Part shown: one piece after another, positions 12,934 to 31,076 of the stretch
How the letters are laid out: each line of letters opens with the position of its first letter
How positions within the stretch are numbered: the first letter of the stretch is position 1
Translations under genes and position numbers: made by a program
Assembly: GCA_910579525.1 (NCBI GenBank)
Contig: CAJTUK010000004.1
Span: forward strand, 192,112 to 256,111
Origin: an uncultured Christensenella sp.
Lineage (GTDB): Bacteria > Bacillota > Clostridia > Christensenellales > Borkfalkiaceae
DNA: 64,000 bases
Direction: 5' to 3'
Notes under the pieces: generated by a model
Told to the model about the DNA's origin: nothing
What the model saw: the letters and a program-made list of their open reading frames with translations, nothing else
The model's database searches: none

Positions 12934-14895
12934 ATTCTTGTCGAAAAGGAACAAATTCTAAAAGCAAAAGCAAAGCTTGGCGACAGAAACGCAGAAATAA
13001 TTGCTGAGCTATTAAACCTCGAAAAGTATGATGCCGTAAATAAAAAAGCACTATGCCCGTGGCATTTAGAAGACTCACCGAGTTTCATCTACAACCCAAA
13101 GACATTCAGTTTCCACTGCTTTGGGTGCGGTAGAAATACAGATATCATCGATGCGTACACTCACACGGGAATGACATATCTTGAGGCACTGCAAAAATTA
13201 TTCGAGGAAGCAAAGATGTCCGTCTCTTTCGGAGAGAAAGGCGTCAAAACTAAATATCAGTACAGATACCCAAAAGAAGAGCCACTGAATGACAAAGAGC
13301 ACGTCTATACATATTTGGCTCAACGACACATATCACAAACCACAGTAGATGCTGTTGACGTCCGCGAAGACGCTCACGGCAACATCGTGTTCAACTACTA
13401 CGACACCAATGATGTTCTCTGCCTCGTTAAATATCGTCCGTCACATAAGATTGATAAGGCGAACGGCGAGATAAAGGCTTGGTGCCAAAAAGACGCAGAC
13501 ACAACCCCTCTACTCTTTAATATGAACAGAGTCAACACAACCTCTCCCCTTTTAATTTGCGAGGGCGAAATTGACTGTATGGCTGCCATCGAGGCAGGCT
13601 TTACGAACGCAGTTTCGGTACCGCTTGGCGCAAACAACTACGGCTGGATTGAGGAAAACTTTGATTGGCTCGAACAGTTTGAGAGCATCATCATTTGTTC
13701 GGATAATGATGAAGCAGGCATCAAAATGCAAAAGGAATGTGTGTTCCGACTTGGTTCTTGGAGAACAAAAGTTGTCGGCATTCCACTCTTCCACTACGAT
13801 GCCGAGCAAGACAAGCGCTTCCCTATGAAAGACCTTAACCACGTCTTGTACTACGAAGGGAAAGACGCCGTACTCGAACTCATACATAACGCAAAAGACA
13901 CGCCTGTCGATAGTGTTTCGGACTTCTCCGACATCACCAATATTGACTTGGATCAAATCGACGGCATAAAGACTGGCATCCCTGATTTAGATAAGAAACT
14001 TATGAAGTTGTTCTACGGAACATTCACAATTGTTACGGGCGTCAATGGCTCTGGTAAGTCATCGTTCCTCTCACAGTTAATATGTAACGCGGTAGACGAA
14101 GATAAGAACGCCTTCCTCTACTCTGGCGAGTTACCCAACTTCCAGAGCAAGAACTGGATTAACTACATCCTCGCCGGACAGCGCAACGTGAGAGAGTATA
14201 ACTTCAACGGTGCAACTTATTGGAAGGTAACTCCAGAAGCACAAAAAGCGATGAATGAATACTATCGCGGAAGGCTCTTCATCTACAAGGACGGCTACGA
14301 CCATAAGGTAGATTCCATACTGAAATCTATGGAAGATTCTACGAGGAAATATGGGTGTAAGTTACACATCATCGATAACCTGACGTCTGTCAACCTCGAA
14401 GCGAACGAGCAGAACAAGTATCAGAAACAAGAAGAATTTGTTACACGGCTCATCGACTTTGCGAAGAAGTACAACGTCGCGGTTCTCTTGGTTGTACACC
14501 CACACAAGATTGAACAAATGCGCAGGCTGAACAAAATGGATATCCAAGGCATCTCGGCAATCATCGATTTGGCTCACAGGATTTTGAGTTTGTACAGAGT
14601 AACACAAGACGATAGGCGCGGCGTTCCTAATAAGCGTGGCGGCTGGTACAAAGAACCTATTAAGTTCGATGTACTGTGCGACATCTTAAAGGATAGATTG
14701 CTCGGATTTGAGGGCAGTTCCGCTGGGCTCTACTACGACAAACCGTCAAGGCGCTTCTTCGTTGACGAAGAGTCACTTGACAAACGATATGGCTGGGACA
14801 ATGAAGAGTACGCTGGCGCACTCCCCTTCCCGCCGCCTCAACTTTATCAGCAAGATGAAGAAGAGATTTATGGACACATTTCTGGAGAAGGCTAA
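12934..14895 (+). CDS. Bifunctional primase-helicase (T7 gp4-like: CHC2 Zn finger + TOPRIM + DnaB-type helicase)
   Basis: The track ORF starts at ATG 13171, but the same frame is open back to the TAG at 12913-12915 and encodes CPWHLEDSPSFIYNPKTFSFHCFGCG (a DnaG CHC2 finger). TOPRIM motifs LICEGEIDCMAA and CSDNDEAG, and Walker A GVNGSGKS. Proposed ATT start at 12934, 9 nt after a GGAGG. Confidence 0.8.
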   Translation: MLVEKEQILKAKAKLGDRNAEIIAELLNLEKYDAVNKKALCPWHLEDSPSFIYNPKTFSFHCFGCGRNTDIIDAYTHTGMTYLEALQKLFEEAKMSVSFGEKGVKTKYQYRYPKEEPLNDKEHVYTYLAQRHISQTTVDAVDVREDAHGNIVFNYYDTNDVLCLVKYRPSHKIDKANGEIKAWCQKDADTTPLLFNMNRVNTTSPLLICEGEIDCMAAIEAGFTNAVSVPLGANNYGWIEENFDWLEQFESIIICSDNDEAGIKMQKECVFRLGSWRTKVVGIPLFHYDAEQDKRFPMKDLNHVLYYEGKDAVLELIHNAKDTPVDSVSDFSDITNIDLDQIDGIKTGIPDLDKKLMKLFYGTFTIVTGVNGSGKSSFLSQLICNAVDEDKNAFLYSGELPNFQSKNWINYILAGQRNVREYNFNGATYWKVTPEAQKAMNEYYRGRLFIYKDGYDHKVDSILKSMEDSTRKYGCKLHIIDNLTSVNLEANEQNKYQKQEEFVTRLIDFAKKYNVAVLLVVHPHKIEQMRRLNKMDIQGISAIIDLAHRILSLYRVTQDDRRGVPNKRGGWYKEPIKFDVLCDILKDRLLGFEGSSAGLYYDKPSRRFFVDEESLDKRYGWDNEEYAGALPFPPPQLYQQDEEEIYGHISGEG

Positions 14896-17800
14896 TGAAA
14901 GTATTTCAAAACTACCATCGTCATGCGATGTACACAAACGTAAGAATATCCGACTCGGCGGTAACCCCTAAGGATTACGCCGAGAGAGCGAAAGCTCTTG
15001 GGCACGGTATCCTATCATCTGCTGAACACGGATGGCAAGGTAACTACTTTGAAACGGTTCGGCTTGCGAAAGAATACGGTCTCAAACCACTTATAGGTGC
15101 CGAGGCGTACTGGGTTAAAGACAGAGCAGAGAAAGACAGAACGAACTGCCACATCTTCTTGGGAGCTAAAAATGAGCGCGGCAGGCAGGCATTGAACGAC
15201 GTTTTGTCCGAAGCAAACCTCACAGGTTTCTACGGGCAGCCGAGGCTCGACGTACCGCTGCTCCTCTCACTTCCAAAGGATGACTTAATTGTAACAACGG
15301 CTTGTATAGCATATTGGCGTTATGAAAACATTGAAGAGATAACCGCTATGCTTGCAAAGCACTTTGGCAAAAACTTCTTCCTTGAAGTTCAGTATCACAA
15401 CACAGAGTCTCAGCGTGAACTTAACAAAAGAATATTGCGCTTACATAACGAATTGAAGATACCTCTTATTATGGGGTGCGACAGTCACTACATAGGCGCA
15501 GACCAAGGTCAAACAAGAACCGACTTCCTCGTATCGAAAGGGTTAACATACCCCGACGAGGAAGGGTGGTTCCTCGACTATCCAGATGGCGACACAGCAT
15601 ACGAAAGGTTTGCTAACCAATGCGTGTTAAGCCACAGTGAAATTAACGACGCTATGGATAACACAGGCGTCTTTCTCGAAGTTGAAGAATATGACAGTCC
15701 TATCTTCAACACCGATATTAAAATGCCCTCCCTCTTCCCTACTTTGTCACAAGAAGAAAAGAACGAGAAGTACAAGAGCTTGGTATGGAGCGGCTGGGAA
15801 GAATATAAAAAGTCGGTGCCCGAAGATAAATGGGCTTTGTACGAGTCCGAAATTGAAAAAGAAATTAAGACCGTTGAAGACACACATATGGCTGACTACT
15901 TCATCGACAACTACCACATCATCCGCAAAGGAAAAGAGAACGGCGGATGGTTGACAAAAAGCGGACGTGGCTCCGCGGTATCGTTCATCACAAATATGCT
16001 TCTTGGCTTCACCGAAGTTGACAGAATTGCAGCCAAAGTGCATATGTACCCAGAACGTTTTATGAGCGCAACGAGAATTCTACAAAGCGGCTCCTTGCCC
16101 GATATAGACTTCAACTGCGCACCCGTAGAACCGTTTGCTCGCGCACAGCAAGAAATACTTGGCGAAGACCACGCCTACCCTATGGTAGCTTATGGCACCA
16201 TGCAGAAATCGGCGGCTTGGAAACTCTACGCAAAGTCACAAGGCATATCCTTCGAGATCGCCAATGCGGTGTCCGAACAAATTAAAAAGTACGAAGCTGC
16301 CGTTAAGCACGCCCCCGAAGACGAAAAAGATGACATCAACGTCTTCGATTACATTGATAAAGACTTCCACGAGATATATGAAAAAAGCAAAGACTATCTC
16401 GGTCTTGTAACCTCGTGGAGTATTGCACCCTGCTCATACCTGCTCTATGAGGGCAGCATCAGAAAAGAAATTGGCTTAGTTAAAGTCAAAGACCACCTCT
16501 GCTGTTTAATGGACGGTCACTGGGCAGAAGCTTGTCACTTCCTCAAGAATGACTTGCTGAAAGTATCTGTGGTTGACTTAATTTATCGAGCCTACCACCG
16601 CATTGGAATTGAACCACCGACTGTTACCGAACTTCTTAAAATGTGTCCACCCGACGATAAGGCTTGGGAGATATACGAAAAAGGTTGCACTCTTGGTATC
16701 AACCAATGTGAACAGACAGGAACGGCTTCGAGAGTAACGAAGTACAAGCCGAAGAATATATCGGAGCTTGGTGCATTCGTTGCTGCTATTCGCCCCGGCT
16801 TCAAGTCAATGTATAAGACATTTGAAGAACGCAAACCGTTTGCATACGGCGTCAAGGCGTTTGATGAACTGATACAGACAGACGAAATGCCGAGCAGCTT
16901 CTTGCTCTACCAAGAACAAGAAATGGCAGCTCTGAACTACGCTGGCATTGATATGAGCGACTGCTATACGGCAATAAAAAACATTGCTAAAAAGCGCGCT
17001 GATAAGGTGTTGGCATATAAAGAGAAGTTCATTAACGGCTTCTCTCAGGTAATGATTGAAGACGAGCATAAGACGCCAGAAGAAGCGGCATCTATGTCGC
17101 AAGAGCTGTGGCAAATCATTGAAGACTCGTCAAGATACTCATTCAACGCATCCCACTCCTATTGCGTTGCTTTGGATAGTCTGTACGGCGCTTGGCTTAA
17201 AGCACACCACCCGTTGGAGTTCTATGAAGTGTTACTTACCCTCGCCGAACAAAAGGGCGACAAAGACAAAATGAACGCCCTTAAAGAAGAGGCTGAAAGT
17301 TACTTCAATATAAAGTTTCCGCCGTTTAGGTTTGGACAGGATAACCGTTCAATTAAAGCAGACGTTGAAAACAACTTGATTGTGAACTCTCTTTCCGCAA
17401 TAAAAGGATTTAGCCTTTCGGTCGGCGCAGCCTTATATGATTGCAGTAAAAATAACTTTACTTCATTCGTTGATGTGCTGGCGTGGCTGGATAAAAAAGC
17501 TCTCAAGGCTTCAAAGGTTAGACCCCTCATCACAATCGACTACTTCCAACAGTTTGGTAACATTAACGAACTCCTCTCCATCCTTGATTTGTGGGAGTTG
17601 TTAAAGCAAGGTCAAGCAAAGTCGGTCAGAAAAGACAAAGTGACATCCATTGTTGTGCAGCGGATATTGTCGTACAACTGTTCAACCACGAACAAAGACG
17701 GCACAGAGTCTGCATCTTACAGAATGGAAAACGAACAAACGACAATGAAGTGTTTGTATGACTTCGAGCAATACATAAAGCAACATCCAATGCCATCACC

Positions 17801-26846: not shown

Positions 26847-27272
26847 TTAGTCTTTGAAATATTTATCGCCGAGCCGCGTTGCCCAACCCTCGAACCATAT
26901 GCTATCGTAATCTGGTAAATCGTGATATCTCTTCTTGCCGCTACGTACAAGTATCTCCCTGTACCAATAGCGTATGCAAGACGGTATGCTTACCAAGAAC
27001 GGCATAAATACGCCAAGCATAATATTCTGTAAGCCGTGCCCGCTTTCGTGGCGCCTGATGCTGAATGTAGGGTTCTTGTTTGTCACGAAGAAACATCCGC
27101 ACTCAAAGCCGCCCCAATTTTCCCCTATTTCAAAATAAATGAGGTAATGGAATCTGTGGGGCTTATGCCCCGTCACCATCAACGCGACAGCAACGAGGCA
27201 GCCCACTAACGTCATAGGAAGACCCCACGTAAATGAGGCTATCCAAAAGCCTATTGCCTTAAGCTTCTTCAT
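26847..27272 (-). CDS. Membrane protein with HExxH zinc-peptidase-like motif
   Basis: 141 aa. Two or more hydrophobic segments and HESGH at residues 75-79. Overlaps the holin stop. Confidence 0.5.
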   Translation of the reverse strand: MKKLKAIGFWIASFTWGLPMTLVGCLVAVALMVTGHKPHRFHYLIYFEIGENWGGFECGCFFVTNKNPTFSIRRHESGHGLQNIMLGVFMPFLVSIPSCIRYWYREILVRSGKKRYHDLPDYDSIWFEGWATRLGDKYFKD

Positions 27273-27720: not shown

Positions 27721-28839
27721 TCACGACCAATAGAACAATCGCACGTAAAGGTCGTGTATTCTTTGTCTCGCCCAATACGAGTTAAACTTTAGCTGATGAC
27801 CACGCCACGAACACCACGATGTCATAACGTCTTCAAAAGTCATCTTGCCCTCGTCAACCCAACGCTTGAACGTTTTTAATTTTCTACGCATAAGCGTAAT
27901 ATTCTTTCTGTACGGCTTGCGGACTATCTTTCCTGTCTTGGTTAAAATGAAATGTGTCTTAAGGAAGTTGATACCGCGGCTCAACTTTACGATTTGTGTC
28001 TTCTTGGTGTTTAGCTTTATGCCAAGCTCTGTGCAAATCTCCGTAATCTTTTTTAAGCAATATTGTAGATGTTCCTTACTGTGGTGTATCAGGCACCCAT
28101 CGTCCATATAACGGCAGTAATACTTGATACCAAGTTGTTCCTTGATATAGTGATCCATTTTGTTTGGGAGTGCTAATGCACAACTCTGCGATATCTGGCT
28201 CCCAAGCCCAAGACCATTTTCACCAAAGTCATCTACTAATTGTTTGACAATAGCGTACAGTCTATCATCAGTGATTTTCTCGCGTAATATCTTCAACAGC
28301 GCAACGTGGTCAATGCTATTAAAGTATTTTGAGAAATCAAAAACGAGGGCATAACCCTCGCTACCGTAATGTCTGTAATATTTTTCCAAATGTCTATTCA
28401 TTCGGTTGAGTGCAAAGTCAATTCCTCTGAGCTTTATACAAGCACCGTTATCGTAGATAAAAGAGCGCTTTAATATTGGAACCAAACTGTAATCACATAG
28501 GCATCTCTGCACTACACGCTCGCTAATATGAACGCTTTGAATGTGCCTTGGCTTACCTCGTTCGATTATATTAAACTCATAAAATCCTTTGCTTTTGAAT
28601 GTTCCATCACGCAACATCTTATATGTAGAATTTACGTTGAGCAGAGCATTCGTTCTGTATTTGTGGGTGCTGGATTTCCAACCCACACCTTTGCAACATT
28701 GTTTGTAACTATGATATAAGTTATCAAACGTGAAGACTTTATTGTAATCACAATAAATTTCATCAAATTTCCTTTTCTTCTCGAGGCGTTTTTGTTTACG
28801 TCTCTGATACCTTAGTTCATGTCTTTCCTTGCTATTCAT
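27721..28839 (-). CDS. DGR reverse transcriptase
   Basis: 372 aa. YMDD catalytic box (CRYMDDGCLI) and GLGLGSQISQSCALALPN (the DGR-typical xGxxxSQ motif). Lies next to the TR. Confidence 0.9.
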   Translation of the reverse strand: MNSKERHELRYQRRKQKRLEKKRKFDEIYCDYNKVFTFDNLYHSYKQCCKGVGWKSSTHKYRTNALLNVNSTYKMLRDGTFKSKGFYEFNIIERGKPRHIQSVHISERVVQRCLCDYSLVPILKRSFIYDNGACIKLRGIDFALNRMNRHLEKYYRHYGSEGYALVFDFSKYFNSIDHVALLKILREKITDDRLYAIVKQLVDDFGENGLGLGSQISQSCALALPNKMDHYIKEQLGIKYYCRYMDDGCLIHHSKEHLQYCLKKITEICTELGIKLNTKKTQIVKLSRGINFLKTHFILTKTGKIVRKPYRKNITLMRRKLKTFKRWVDEGKMTFEDVMTSWCSWRGHQLKFNSYWARQRIHDLYVRLFYWS

Positions 28840-29054
28840 AAAAATTATATACCTTGTACAGTGAAATCATTGTGGAAAATAACTGCATAGTAGTACCTAC
28901 CATTAAACGCGCTACCACAATCACGCGCAATGCAAGAAGCGTCCGGTAGACCACATCAAAATATTCATTTATCCTTACGGAAAGGTCATAAGCCCCTTTT
29001 GTACTCGTACTGATTTCGTTCCTCAATTGGAATTACTGTGTCTGACATTATCGT

Positions 29055-29179
29055 ACAAAATCCGAAAGCGACGCCGTTACTGTTGTTGGCATTGTTGTTA
29101 TTGCTGTTACCGTTGTTGTTGACATAGCAGAAGTTGTTGCTATTATTGTAATACGGAGAGCGAAGCCACCAGTTGCACG
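29055..29179 (-). repeat. DGR template repeat (TR)
   Basis: 125 nt homologous to 30072-30196. Adenine-rich on the minus strand (39 As, many AAY codons). Confidence 0.9.
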
Positions 29180-29226: not shown

Positions 29227-29646
29227 TTACGATTCCTGAGTGGTTTCTTTAAGGCGTTCTTTATCTTTTTTCTTGACGGCGGAAATTAGTTTGGCTTCCG
29301 CTTCTATCAAGTCCATCCACGCACACCACGTGTTCGACTTAACTTCTTCACCAAACATTTCTTTCGCAACGTCAAGTTGGGAAATTAAGCACTGCAAATC
29401 GCAGTTTGCCCTCGTGAGATAATCTCTGCGCATCTGCACCTCTAACTCACCAGAAGGGAAAACGCTATTTGCTGCCTTGACATTATTGTACACCGATTGC
29501 GATAACCGCACGATTTCGGTCGTAATGAAAAAAGTATATCGTTTTGGAAATTTGACACAATTTCTTAAGGTGAAAATCTCTAACTGTCTTGCAGTCTCTA
29601 TGAATTGTAACTGCGATTCATGTCTATCATGCTTATGTACTGACAT
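29227..29646 (-). CDS. avd: DGR accessory variability determinant (Avd-like)
   Basis: 139 aa, helical and basic. Occupies the canonical slot between target and TR. Resembles the four-helix-bundle Avd / 23S-IVS protein family. Confidence 0.75.
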   Translation of the reverse strand: MSVHKHDRHESQLQFIETARQLEIFTLRNCVKFPKRYTFFITTEIVRLSQSVYNNVKAANSVFPSGELEVQMRRDYLTRANCDLQCLISQLDVAKEMFGEEVKSNTWCAWMDLIEAEAKLISAVKKKDKERLKETTQES

Positions 29647-29679: not shown

Positions 29680-29997
29680 TTATTCTTCGTCTTCCCGTTC
29701 TTCGTGTTCGGGTTGAACGTATTTGATTGCCTCAAAATACTCTTCGTCTTTAACGTCTATATCTCCTATCAGAACAGACGGGCTCGCGCCAAGACCAAGA
29801 TATCTATCGATGTTATCCTGAGGGTTCTTCATATACCAGCCGACGTTCTCACCTGCAAATTTATATATCAAGTGATAGTTGCCGCAGATATGTAGTTCGT
29901 TGTTGGCTATATATCCCTGCCCGTTGGATGCTACAAAGATTAGCTTTTCCGCCTCGCTATGCGCATCGGGCGTAGGTTTGAAGTAGAATTGATCCAT
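29680..29997 (-). CDS. Hypothetical acidic protein inside the DGR cassette
   Basis: 105 aa with an AGGAGG SD. C-terminal EHEEREDEE. No motif recognised. Confidence 0.55.
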   Translation of the reverse strand: MDQFYFKPTPDAHSEAEKLIFVASNGQGYIANNELHICGNYHLIYKFAGENVGWYMKNPQDNIDRYLGLGASPSVLIGDIDVKDEEYFEAIKYVQPEHEEREDEE

Positions 29998-30023: not shown

Positions 30024-30044
30024 TCCGCCACATAACGTGGCGGA
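30024..30044. promoter_or_regulatory. GC-rich hairpin just 3' of the VR
   Basis: TCCGCCAC, 5-nt loop, GTGGCGGA, 22 nt past the target stop codon. Confidence 0.5.
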
Positions 30045-30065
30045 TTTTTTTGTTTCGATATGAGA

Positions 30066-31076
30066 TTAAACACAAAAGCCGAAAGCGACGCCGCCACTGC
30101 CGCTGGCACCGATGCCATTGCTGTAACCGAGGGTGGCGACATAGCAGAAGTAGCCGCTACTACCGGAACACGGAGAGCGAAGCCACCAGGCGCACGATGT
30201 TGTCGCACTGTCCCCTTGTGCCTTTGCGTTATTAAAGTTATAATAAACGTTACTTGATGTAGTCTTCTCTTGTCCAAATCTGTTGTCGTACTTGTTTGCT
30301 ACTGCGGTATCGGAAGTATAGAAACAACCCGTACCTTCAAGCACTGAAAACGCCCCCGTTCCTGTTTTTGGGTTAGGTATGGGAGCATTCTTGAAGTACT
30401 CATACTGCTCGCCTTCATTAGGGAACGACATCTGAGAAGTTTTCGAGTACATATTGTTACCCATAACTTCGCGCTGCGAGAATAAGAATAATTTATCGGA
30501 AGTTGTATCAAGTGCGCCACCCCGATCATATCTCGCCGTAACTTTATCGACTGGTTTTATCACTGCCTTAACTTCGTCGGGAAGAAGCCCATAAAGAGTT
30601 TGCATTGTTGAAGTTCTCATCGTGCTTTCAGACCATCCGCCAGCGTTTGTACTGGTTGGGTTCATCACGTAGTTCGTTGATAAACAGTTTTTCATTCCAA
30701 GCGTCACGCCCGCTTTACCACCGCCCGTAAGATTATCGTGGTTAAACCCAAGGATAACCATCGTAATTTTCTCGCCAGTAGATAAAATGATTTCTTTCTC
30801 GTCACCAACACTCCACACTACCGAGGCAAGCCCCGCTTCTGAAAGTGTTTTAATTGTGCTCCACGACGCGCCAGCAAAAGAGCTGTCCTTAGACAAGCCG
30901 ACAAGCGCATTGAGCTTACCATCCATCGTACCGAGCTTATCCATTACGGCTTCGTACTCTGTCTTTGCAGCATAATGTTGTTGTATATCGTTTCCAGCCG
31001 CATCGTAAGTTGCAGCCAACGGAATATCTACCATTGTCCCGCTTGCGGTTTTACCTTGTAATTTATATCCCGCCAT
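30066..31076 (-). CDS. DGR target protein: tail-fibre/receptor-binding protein with C-terminal variable C-type-lectin-like (DUF1566-type) domain
   Basis: 336 aa. C-terminus CAWWLRSP...GVAFGFCV parallels the TR-encoded NWWLRSP...GVAFGFC. Located at the distal end of the tail-fibre cluster. Confidence 0.85.
   Translation of the reverse strand: MAGYKLQGKTASGTMVDIPLAATYDAAGNDIQQHYAAKTEYEAVMDKLGTMDGKLNALVGLSKDSSFAGASWSTIKTLSEAGLASVVWSVGDEKEIILSTGEKITMVILGFNHDNLTGGGKAGVTLGMKNCLSTNYVMNPTSTNAGGWSESTMRTSTMQTLYGLLPDEVKAVIKPVDKVTARYDRGGALDTTSDKLFLFSQREVMGNNMYSKTSQMSFPNEGEQYEYFKNAPIPNPKTGTGAFSVLEGTGCFYTSDTAVANKYDNRFGQEKTTSSNVYYNFNNAKAQGDSATTSCAWWLRSPCSGSSGYFCYVATLGYSNGIGASGSGGVAFGFCV
30072..30196 (-). 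repeat. DGR variable repeat (VR)
   Basis: The last ~41 codons of the target gene. 98 of 125 positions are identical to the TR, and all 27 differences lie at TR adenines. Confidence 0.9.

Follow-up and report, generated by a model that had tools for sequence, protein, structure and literature searches.

A stretch of 64,000 nt from an uncultured Christensenella sp. (hereafter the window) carries two closely similar repeats, one of them forming the end of a 336-aa gene, which raises the question of whether they are the template repeat (TR) and a variable repeat (VR) of a diversity-generating retroelement (DGR) and, if so, what this element diversifies and whether it still does so. Our answer, in which we have high confidence, is that the pair represents the TR and the first variable repeat (VR1) of an intact, naturally active DGR in a roughly 100-kb prophage, with one TR and two targets. 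We arrive at this answer through adenine-specific differences between the repeats, flow of information from TR to VR, population diversity confined to the VR, the presence of all parts of such an element, and covariation in a predicted duplex between the TR and the adjoining spacer RNA. Coordinates are positions of the window, and the coding strand of the cassette is the minus strand.

Differences between the repeats fall on template adenines

Computed comparison of the TR (29055-29179, minus strand) with VR1 (30072-30196, minus strand), which makes up the last 41 codons of target gene 1, gave a constant offset of 1017 over 125 positions, with 98 identities, 27 mismatches and no indels. This reproduces the gap-free alignment given in an initial annotation of this DNA, which had also correctly placed one limit of homology at 29179/30196; the other lies at 29055/30072. 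All 27 mismatches are T on the plus strand, that is, A on the coding strand of the TR, so that 27 of the 39 TR adenines are changed in VR1 compared with 0 of the 86 non-A positions (hypergeometric P = 2.1e-18 for 27 random mismatches all falling at TR A). The changes comprise 17 A>G, 6 A>C and 4 A>T. Mismatches at non-A positions and indels, which the annotation had named as observations that would speak against its reading, were looked for in the computed alignment and neither occurs.

The TR is A-rich (31% A), and its adenines are arranged in a characteristic manner with respect to the reading frame of the 336-aa gene. Twenty-three TR codons contain A, 16 of which are AAY (12 AAC and 4 AAT, where Y is a pyrimidine), in agreement with the earlier statement that TR codons are mostly of this type. 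Nineteen adenines occupy codon position 1, 19 occupy position 2 and one occupies position 3; with the adenines at positions 1 and 2, no stop codon can arise. VR1 accordingly has 23 diversifiable codons, for which the upper bound of peptide diversity is about 3e22. The last 21 nt of TR and VR1 are identical but for one A site (TR index 118, window 29061/30078), again as annotated, and this site turned out to be a fixed difference among relatives.

Close relatives indicate copying from TR to VR

A search with the reverse transcriptase (RT) of the cassette recovered eight IMG/VR contigs and one mouse-gut metagenome-assembled genome (MAG; 'uncultured Christensenella sp.' MGBC106726) with RTs 95-96% identical to that of the window, along with more distant cassettes in Christensenellaceae MAGs. 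None of 50,697 phage records was matched by megablast with the 8 kb surrounding the cassette. We compared TR and VR1 column by column in the window and seven close loci (RT 95-96% identical) and found 5 variable columns in the TR and 40 in VR1, of which 35 are at TR-A. Within each locus, mismatches between its own TR and VR fell at A in 27/27, 25/25, 22/22, 16/16, 18/19, 29/29, 21/22 and 25/26 cases. Furthermore, non-A changes in a TR recur in its own VRs, at positions 22 and 25 in locus L007 and at position 67 in locus L019, and at position 63 the window TR has A where the other TRs, and the VRs belonging to them, have G. At the level of sequence comparison, such mirroring is the signature of TR-to-VR copying after the lineages split. 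Taken together, a VR1 that varies at A, a TR that is nearly invariant and non-A TR changes that are mirrored in the VRs argue that information flows from TR to VR and that the element is active.

One template repeat supplies a second, distant target

Searching the whole assembly with the TR as query, as the initial annotation had proposed, yielded one further match (G000:C8:17917-18032) on contig C8, in the same prophage. This repeat, VR2, forms the last 40 codons of a 239-aa protein (target 2; DUF6273, 7.8e-14), and its start lies 10 nt later than that of VR1. All 17 of its differences from the TR (17/17) are at TR adenines (P = 2e-10). VR2 has in common with VR1 the sequence block at the 3′ end, the fixed C at index 118, the TTTAATC motif and the downstream hairpin, all of which are described below.

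Contig C4, which contains the window, ends and C8 begins within the same 66-nt tandem repeat, in the same orientation, and no other contig has this repeat. Host genes flank the phage region in the window below about 5517 and on C8 above 40075, next to an integrase at C8 38774-39982. Because the shared repeat joins C4 and C8 and host genes flank both outer sides, we take the two contigs to be the arms of one prophage of roughly 100 kb. VR2 then lies about 57 kb from the TR, not counting the repeat units between the contigs, and on the opposite strand. The 66-nt array itself (G000:C4:260337-260530 and G000:C8:1-113, unit CCGCGCCCACCGCGCAAAGGGGTTGCCCCCCGTTACTCTTTTAGTGAACGGGCAACACACCCCACA) breaks the assembly between the prophage arms and may serve as an origin, pac site or iteron array; in a sister MAG the assembly is interrupted at the corresponding point by another repeat, of about 59 nt. 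That MAG, with the same contig split, has its own VR2, in which 17/17 differences are at adenines and which carries the non-A variants of its own TR (G63, C66 and G67).

Diversity at target 2 is also visible in natural populations. We found 21 database clusters of target 2 at 92-95% identity, and in 22 target-2 sequences (at least 92% identity) 21 of the 40 VR columns were variable, with up to ten residues in a column, compared with 11 of 199 columns elsewhere. Column entropy in these sequences was 1.07 bits in the VR against 0.016 bits elsewhere, and every variable VR2 column corresponds to an A-containing TR codon. With target-2 diversity concentrated in the VR and, within it, at A-containing TR codons, we conclude that VR2 is actively diversified in nature.

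Target 2 lies outside the structural module, surrounded by genes for RNase HI, a polynucleotide-kinase-like protein, a phosphoesterase and an RNA-binding protein. One TR thus goes with one target in the tail module and another, small target in a non-structural region, and the same is true of the sister MAG and of G007, a complete 33.7-kb phage with an RT 64% identical. G007 has the same cassette order, including the 105-aa open reading frame (ORF), holin and 141-aa protein described below, with one adjacent VR and one non-adjacent VR ~12 kb away (15/15 mismatches at A). Because G007 combines the cassette with both an adjacent and a non-adjacent VR, the two-target layout is conserved in this DGR lineage.

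A fixed difference and a hairpin mark the 3′ boundary of the variable repeats

In the prototype DGR of phage BPP-1, the 3′ boundary of the VR is described as an initiation of mutagenic homing (IMH) element, with a counterpart at the TR (IMH*) and an inverted repeat, an anatomy present in about a third of surveyed DGRs. The corresponding IMH-like block here spans 30064-30092 (minus strand) and reads GGCGTCGCTTTCGG-C-TTTTGT plus GTTTAATC, stop codon included. We observed no A-to-N change 3′ of TR index 102. At index 118, where the TR has GGA and the VR has GGC, C is present in 8/8 VR1 copies and in both VR2 copies examined, whereas the other adenine sites vary freely, apart from three that are never altered. 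Because C occurs in all VR1 and VR2 copies while other adenine sites vary, we read the GGA/GGC site as a fixed difference between IMH and IMH* rather than a product of mutagenesis. With this fixed difference, and no mutagenised site beyond index 102, mutagenesis accounts for 26 of the 27 mismatches; the initial claim of 27 mismatches thus holds for their position at TR adenines, but one of the 27 has to be taken out of the mutagenesis count.

The adenines unaltered in the eight VR1 copies are at TR indices 38, 62 and 74 (window 29141, 29117 and 29105). Two of the three are the first base of AGC (Ser) codons, and index 74, which is in an AGC codon, is invariant also in the 22 VR2 proteins. This pattern suggests selection on scaffold residues or context-dependent fidelity.

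Beyond the block, [G/A]TTTAATC comes after every VR of the prophage and of phage G007 and never after a TR. A GC-rich hairpin with an 8-bp stem and a 5-nt loop (30024-30044, minus strand) lies 27 nt downstream of VR1, and hairpins were found 19-27 nt downstream of all four VRs examined, with stems of 8 bp at VR1, 5 bp at VR2, and 9 bp and 7 bp in G007. Their sequences differ between VRs and none follows any TR; no U-tract is found behind any VR hairpin, and the ribosome-binding site of the next gene comes immediately after. The locus therefore shows the IMH, IMH* and GC inverted repeat of DGR anatomy, the last after the VR only, and by analogy these parts may have a role in homing.

The spacer RNA is predicted to pair with the end of the template

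The spacer between TR and RT matches a structured RNA, Rfam RF03077 (RT-2 RNA), at 28829-29050 on the minus strand (130.1 bits, E = 3e-31, model positions 1-222 of 222), and RF03077 fills the TR-RT spacer also in six relatives with RTs 53-96% identical. Weinberg et al. (PMC5737381) described the motifs RT-1 to RT-19 near RT genes, showed that RT-10 forms the spacer between TR and RT in BPP-1, and suggested that further motifs of the series might belong to other DGRs.

In BPP-1, spacer positions Sp47-56 pair with TR117-129 at the 3′ end of the TR, priming is by Sp A56, and copying starts at TR G117. At the same place in the window, a predicted duplex joins UUUUGUAC (29053-29060, minus strand), directly 3′ of TR A118, with GUACAAAA in the spacer (28997-29004, minus strand), with pairing at 8/8 positions. 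The spacer strand is followed by a GGGG box (the conserved GGRR box), and by analogy to Sp A56 of BPP-1 its last A is the candidate priming nucleotide. A duplex just 3′ of A118 would account for mutagenesis stopping upstream of index 118.

To evaluate this duplex we gathered further RT-2 loci by their conserved core GGACGCTNCTTGCAT and anchored both strands on conserved flanks. Across 36 distinct TR/spacer combinations, a mean of 6.22 of 8 positions paired, compared with 4.72 +/- 0.17 of 8 when partners were shuffled among loci (maximum 5.44 in 2000 shuffles). Position 5 of the duplex, for instance, is GC in 10 combinations, CG in 8, AU in 8 and GU in 4, and covarying examples include UUUUGCGA:UCGCAAAA, UUCUGCAA:UUGCAGAA, UUUUAUAC:GUAUAAAA and UUCCAUAA:UUAUGGAA. 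This covariation supports an 8-bp template:primer duplex between TR and spacer, positioned as it is in BPP-1. When the longest complementary run between TR and spacer was sought without anchors, own and foreign partners were not distinguished (7.23 vs 6.97); this search was confounded by an invariant GGAUUUU:GAAAUC pairing, and the anchored test alone is informative.

Genes of the cassette

All on the minus strand, the cassette runs in the order target 1, a 105-aa ORF, Avd, TR, a 215-nt spacer and RT, and is followed by a holin. Target gene 1 (336 aa, 30066-31076) belongs to the tail module and matches Pfam PF19789 (DUF6273, 6.9e-18), with the VR at its C-terminus; upstream of it are a fibre-like 276-aa protein, a BppU-like baseplate protein, a 1511-aa tail protein and a 1607-aa protein. 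The RT (372 aa, 27721-28839, minus strand; Pfam RVT_1, 2.7e-17; phrog_1423, 3.2e-86) has LGSQISQ at residue 212 and YMDD at residue 244, as expected of the DGR clade ([I/L/V]GxxxSQ and YxDD), and its scores against the NCBIfam models for group II, retron and defence-associated (DRT) RTs are all far under their cutoffs. Its best solved relative in the PDB is 8ub7_A (3.5e-23), which we take to be the BPP-1 RT. The Avd-like accessory gene (139 aa, 29227-29646, minus strand) lies directly upstream of the TR and matches phrog_3206, 'Avd protein of DGR', over its full length (1e-8). With RT, Avd, spacer RNA, IMH and hairpin, and a DUF6273 target, the neighbours expected of a DGR are in place, which supports the initial reading of the repeats as a TR/VR pair. 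In the NCBIfam search, nothing exceeded cutoff for RT, Avd, the 105-aa ORF, target 1 or target 2.

Between target 1 and avd lies an acidic ORF of 105 aa (29680-29997, minus strand) with no match in Pfam, PHROG or NCBIfam. We found 13 homologues, all without name or annotation. Cassettes with RTs 61-64% identical have the ORF at the same position, with 36-44% identity of the ORF itself; the cassettes L016 and L017, both at 53% RT identity, lack it. A 141-aa membrane protein after the holin (window 26847-27272, minus strand) also travels with the cassette and is better conserved in the distant relatives (59-73%) than the RT (61-64%).

The same genome contains two further loci of this kind. One is a second DGR (G000:C2:184029-186444) with an RT at 184029-185081 (minus strand), a TR at 185194-185321 and a VR at 185409-185536 in a 350-aa target; 9/9 of its mismatches are at TR adenines, and it adjoins phage tail-like genes. 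The other is a third, DGR-like locus (G000:C1:9999-17044), in which an RT at 15929-17044 (minus strand), 33% identical to that of the window, has an Avd-sized gene beside it. A ~120-nt repeat occurs many times in a ~2-kb array of this locus (13500-15360) and once more within a 790-aa ORF, and one repeat pair has 11/12 mismatches at T.

Predicted structures of the two targets

AlphaFold models of targets 1 and 2 reached pLDDT (predicted local distance difference test) values of 87.1 and 91.4, and the best PDB match of both was 9qa6 (probability 1.0), which covers the N-terminal part of the IgA peptidase of Thomasclavelia ramosa and holds the only DUF6273 domain solved so far. Against a library of viral models, target 2 gave matches with E as low as 2e-13, to DUF6273 proteins, a tail-collar fibre and a receptor-binding protein, and the profile of target 1 gave no meaningful match to PDB sequences. 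The target 1 model begins with an N-terminal strand and a long helix, a region that would be suited to fibre attachment. Target 2 has a conserved N-terminal CxxC...CxxC motif and no hydrophobic leader or signal peptide.

The neighbourhood of target 2

Upstream of target 2 is a block (C8 13987-17312) composed of a ThiF-like gene, a retron-type RT, about 530 nt of non-coding DNA and RNase HI. The retron-type RT (382 aa, C8 15145-16293), two genes upstream of target 2, matches Pfam RVT_1 (1e-21), the NCBIfam retron St85 family (1.3e-55; 188.7 bits, under the cutoff of 235) and PADLOC RT_II-A (3.6e-52), and the RNase HI scores above its cutoff (202 bits). No known effector was recognised when this RT was examined as a retron, and an Rfam search of its flanks on C8 found no RNA. 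The motif CCAAAATGTCAG[G/A]GAGACG occurs upstream of the retron-type RT and again between RT and RNase H. The target-2 arm also encodes a 518-aa protein (C8 9131-10687; phrog_850 'RNA-binding protein', 2e-139) whose counterparts in relatives carry DUF2828/DUF7788, as well as a radical-SAM-like protein, a polynucleotide-kinase-like ATPase, a phosphoesterase, NAD-salvage-like genes and a tRNA-rich stretch.

Relatives down to 53% identity keep the gene order ThiF, RT, RNase H, target 2. At 45-50% identity, RNase H can be missing or the target gene can lie several kb away across the block, and G007 has no retron-type RT near its second target. We considered a functional tie of target 2 to the retron-type RT and RNase HI, and this proposal is weakened by the shifts in gene position and the absence of RNase HI in distant relatives. 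Since VR2 matches the window TR only, the ThiF/RT/RNase H neighbourhood is probably coincidental, an accessory or defence island. It is unlikely, in our estimate, that target 2 is a cytoplasmic hypervariable binder rather than a virion receptor-binding protein, as its lack of a signal peptide and its N-terminal CxxC...CxxC motif might suggest, and that it works with the block beside it in these large Christensenellaceae prophages; its role might then be, for instance, that of a DGR-diversified sensor or a decoy within a defence or counter-defence module borne by the phage. If it were, one DGR would tune host recognition and an intracellular conflict system alike.

Weighing the evidence

Several observations weigh against an intact, active DGR of this composition or against parts of it. 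In L010 (908-1032), VR1 has G at index 67, which matches the TR of lineage L019 and not its own TR; this points to recombination between phages or a chimeric metagenome assembly rather than simple homing. Ongoing mutagenesis in this lysogen is something we infer from differences between phages and from metagenomic protein variants. The assignment of Avd, in which we have moderate confidence, hangs on the one PHROG match at 1e-8: Pfam PF05635 is below threshold (E of only 0.03-0.06, in 6/10 homologues), and PDB searches, with the one Avd sequence and with a profile built from 10 sequences, recovered no Avd structure. The literature places DUF6273 in the C-type-lectin-like fold of DGR targets, but for the models of both targets Foldseek does not confirm that fold, with C-type lectin carbohydrate-recognition domains scoring only at E > 2 and the 9qa6 DUF6273 domain as the only finding. 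Finally, the TR could instead pair through GGAUUUU with GAAAUC in the spacer, both strands of which are invariant.

These points can be set against three other explanations of the locus. An ordinary duplication or gene-conversion tract, with an adenine bias arising by chance or composition, finds nothing in its favour other than the A-richness of the TR, and we give it no credence: the probabilities are 2e-18 for VR1 and 2e-10 for VR2, the same pattern is found in eight relatives, and the full set of DGR parts is there. These mismatch statistics rule out that the repeat arose by chance or as a paralogue. It is harder to dismiss the cassette as a relic that records past DGR activity and no longer mobilises in this lysogen, with the differences among relatives being old polymorphism, since activity was read from comparisons between phages and protein alleles rather than from heterogeneity within a sample, and since prophage DGRs may act in lytic growth only. 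We nevertheless judge this very unlikely. The RT, Avd, TR, spacer RNA and both targets are intact; phages with RTs 95-96% identical and near-identical flanks carry entirely different VR1 alleles; the 21 target-2 clusters at 92-95% identity differ almost only in the VR; and VRs hold lineage-specific non-A changes of their own TR, so that homing post-dates the divergence of the lineages.

The remaining explanation concerns VR2 alone, which might be served by the retron-type RT (C8 15145-16293) or be a mere diverged paralogue of VR1. This RT and RNase HI do lie directly upstream of target 2, in a neighbourhood that recurs down to 53% identity, yet the window TR is the only TR-like sequence in the genome that matches VR2, with 17/17 differences at its adenines, and VR2 shares the IMH block, fixed C118 and TTTAATC with VR1. 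Moreover, VR2 in the sister MAG follows the TR variants of that genome, the neighbouring RT classes with retron RTs and not with DGR RTs, the target-2 homologue is placed elsewhere relative to the RT in distant relatives, and the second VR of G007 has no such RT nearby. As for a paralogue, the rest of the two targets is ~42% identical while the non-A VR positions are 100% identical to the TR. We therefore attach almost no probability to either version and retain the DGR of the window as the source of both VRs.

A working model of the element

In our model, the avd-TR-spacer region would be transcribed and the RT-2 spacer would fold back so that GUACAAAA (29004-28997) pairs with UUUUGUAC of the TR (29060-29053). 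A complex of RT and Avd would then prime cDNA from the spacer at this duplex and copy the TR toward its 5′ end, with misincorporation opposite TR adenines only. The cDNA would replace the homologous stretch of a target gene, with the target site recognised through the IMH block (GGCGTCGCTTTCGGCTTTTGT plus GTTTAATC) and probably also through the downstream GC hairpin, and the 5′ limit of replacement would be set by the end of homology. In this manner a single TR could supply both VR1, in the tail-module DUF6273 protein, and VR2, in the 239-aa DUF6273 protein. Cis-priming at a spacer adenosine and the roles given to the IMH, hairpin and Avd are modelled on BPP-1.

Comparison with known systems

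The BPP-1 prototype (mtd-VR, avd, TR, Sp, brt) resembles the present DGR in its order of target VR, avd, TR, structured spacer and RT, in adenine-specific mutagenesis at AAY codons, and in a VR at the C-terminus of a receptor-binding-type protein. In both, mutagenesis ends on the 3′ side at an IMH with a GC-rich start, a GC hairpin is found after the VR but not after the TR, and a TR:spacer duplex (predicted here) lies just 3′ of the last transferred nucleotides. BPP-1 differs in using an RT-10 spacer and an Mtd target, where the present element has an RT-2 spacer and a DUF6273 target. Unlike BPP-1, this element also has an extra 105-aa ORF between target and avd, two targets, one of them ~57 kb off, and a Gram-positive gut anaerobe as host.

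Phages of gut bacteria offer closer parallels. Phage Shimadzu of Roseburia intestinalis (Cornuault et al., bioRxiv 10.1101/575076) is likewise a temperate phage of gut Clostridia with one TR and two VRs; VR1 lies in a tail gene just before the RT, VR2 lies in a gene of unknown function elsewhere, and experiments showed that both are diversified (10.1101/575076). Its genome is far smaller and its VR2 much closer to the cassette, whereas here VR2 is ~57 kb away beside a retron-type RT and RNase HI. Two DUF6273 targets are also present in the Faecalibacterium phages Lelie/CP11 and the gut phages nd4/nd12, where the VR occupies the C-terminal end of the domain; one target is large and structural, the other small and of unknown role. 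In nd4/nd12 the VR of the first target (tentaclin) is near the N-terminus, whereas both VRs are C-terminal here, and the N-terminal CxxC...CxxC of target 2 and its unusually large distance to the cassette set the present system apart from all four. In the survey of Wu et al. 2018 (PMC5758913), non-adjacent targets were found in 45/372 DGRs, and phage-associated second targets lay within the same prophage and nearly always within 50 kb of the RT. The survey also includes the combination seen here of an adjacent and a non-adjacent target in one prophage, with 5′ mutagenesis boundaries that differ between targets; at about 57 kb plus the repeat array, VR2 is slightly beyond the 50-kb range.

The DGR itself is therefore of textbook type, and its two-target design is already published for gut phages (Shimadzu, Lelie/CP11, nd4/nd12). 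What distinguishes this system is its Christensenellaceae host, the size of the prophage, a separation of 57 kb, the conserved 105-aa ORF and the use of RT-2 RNA as spacer.

Implications for gut-phage retroelements

The system provides a very clean natural example of TR-to-VR copying, drawn from eight near-identical phages and about twenty metagenomic alleles, in which non-adenine TR changes, too, have been passed to two targets 57 kb apart. It goes slightly beyond published work in placing the Rfam RT-2 RNA, whose function was left open by its discoverers, as the TR-RT spacer of a gut-phage DGR family, and the putative duplex predicts a priming site for this RNA class, which would extend the cis-priming model of BPP-1 to a distant lineage. 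The only solved structure resembling the targets is the DUF6273 domain of a gut-bacterial IgA peptidase (9qa6), so that a domain hypermutated by phages also serves a commensal enzyme that recognises antibodies. In distance to the cassette, the non-adjacent target exceeds nearly all phage examples of the 2018 survey, and it lies in a non-structural region, which makes VR2 a further case to consider in asking about the binding partners of such small second targets in gut-phage DGRs.

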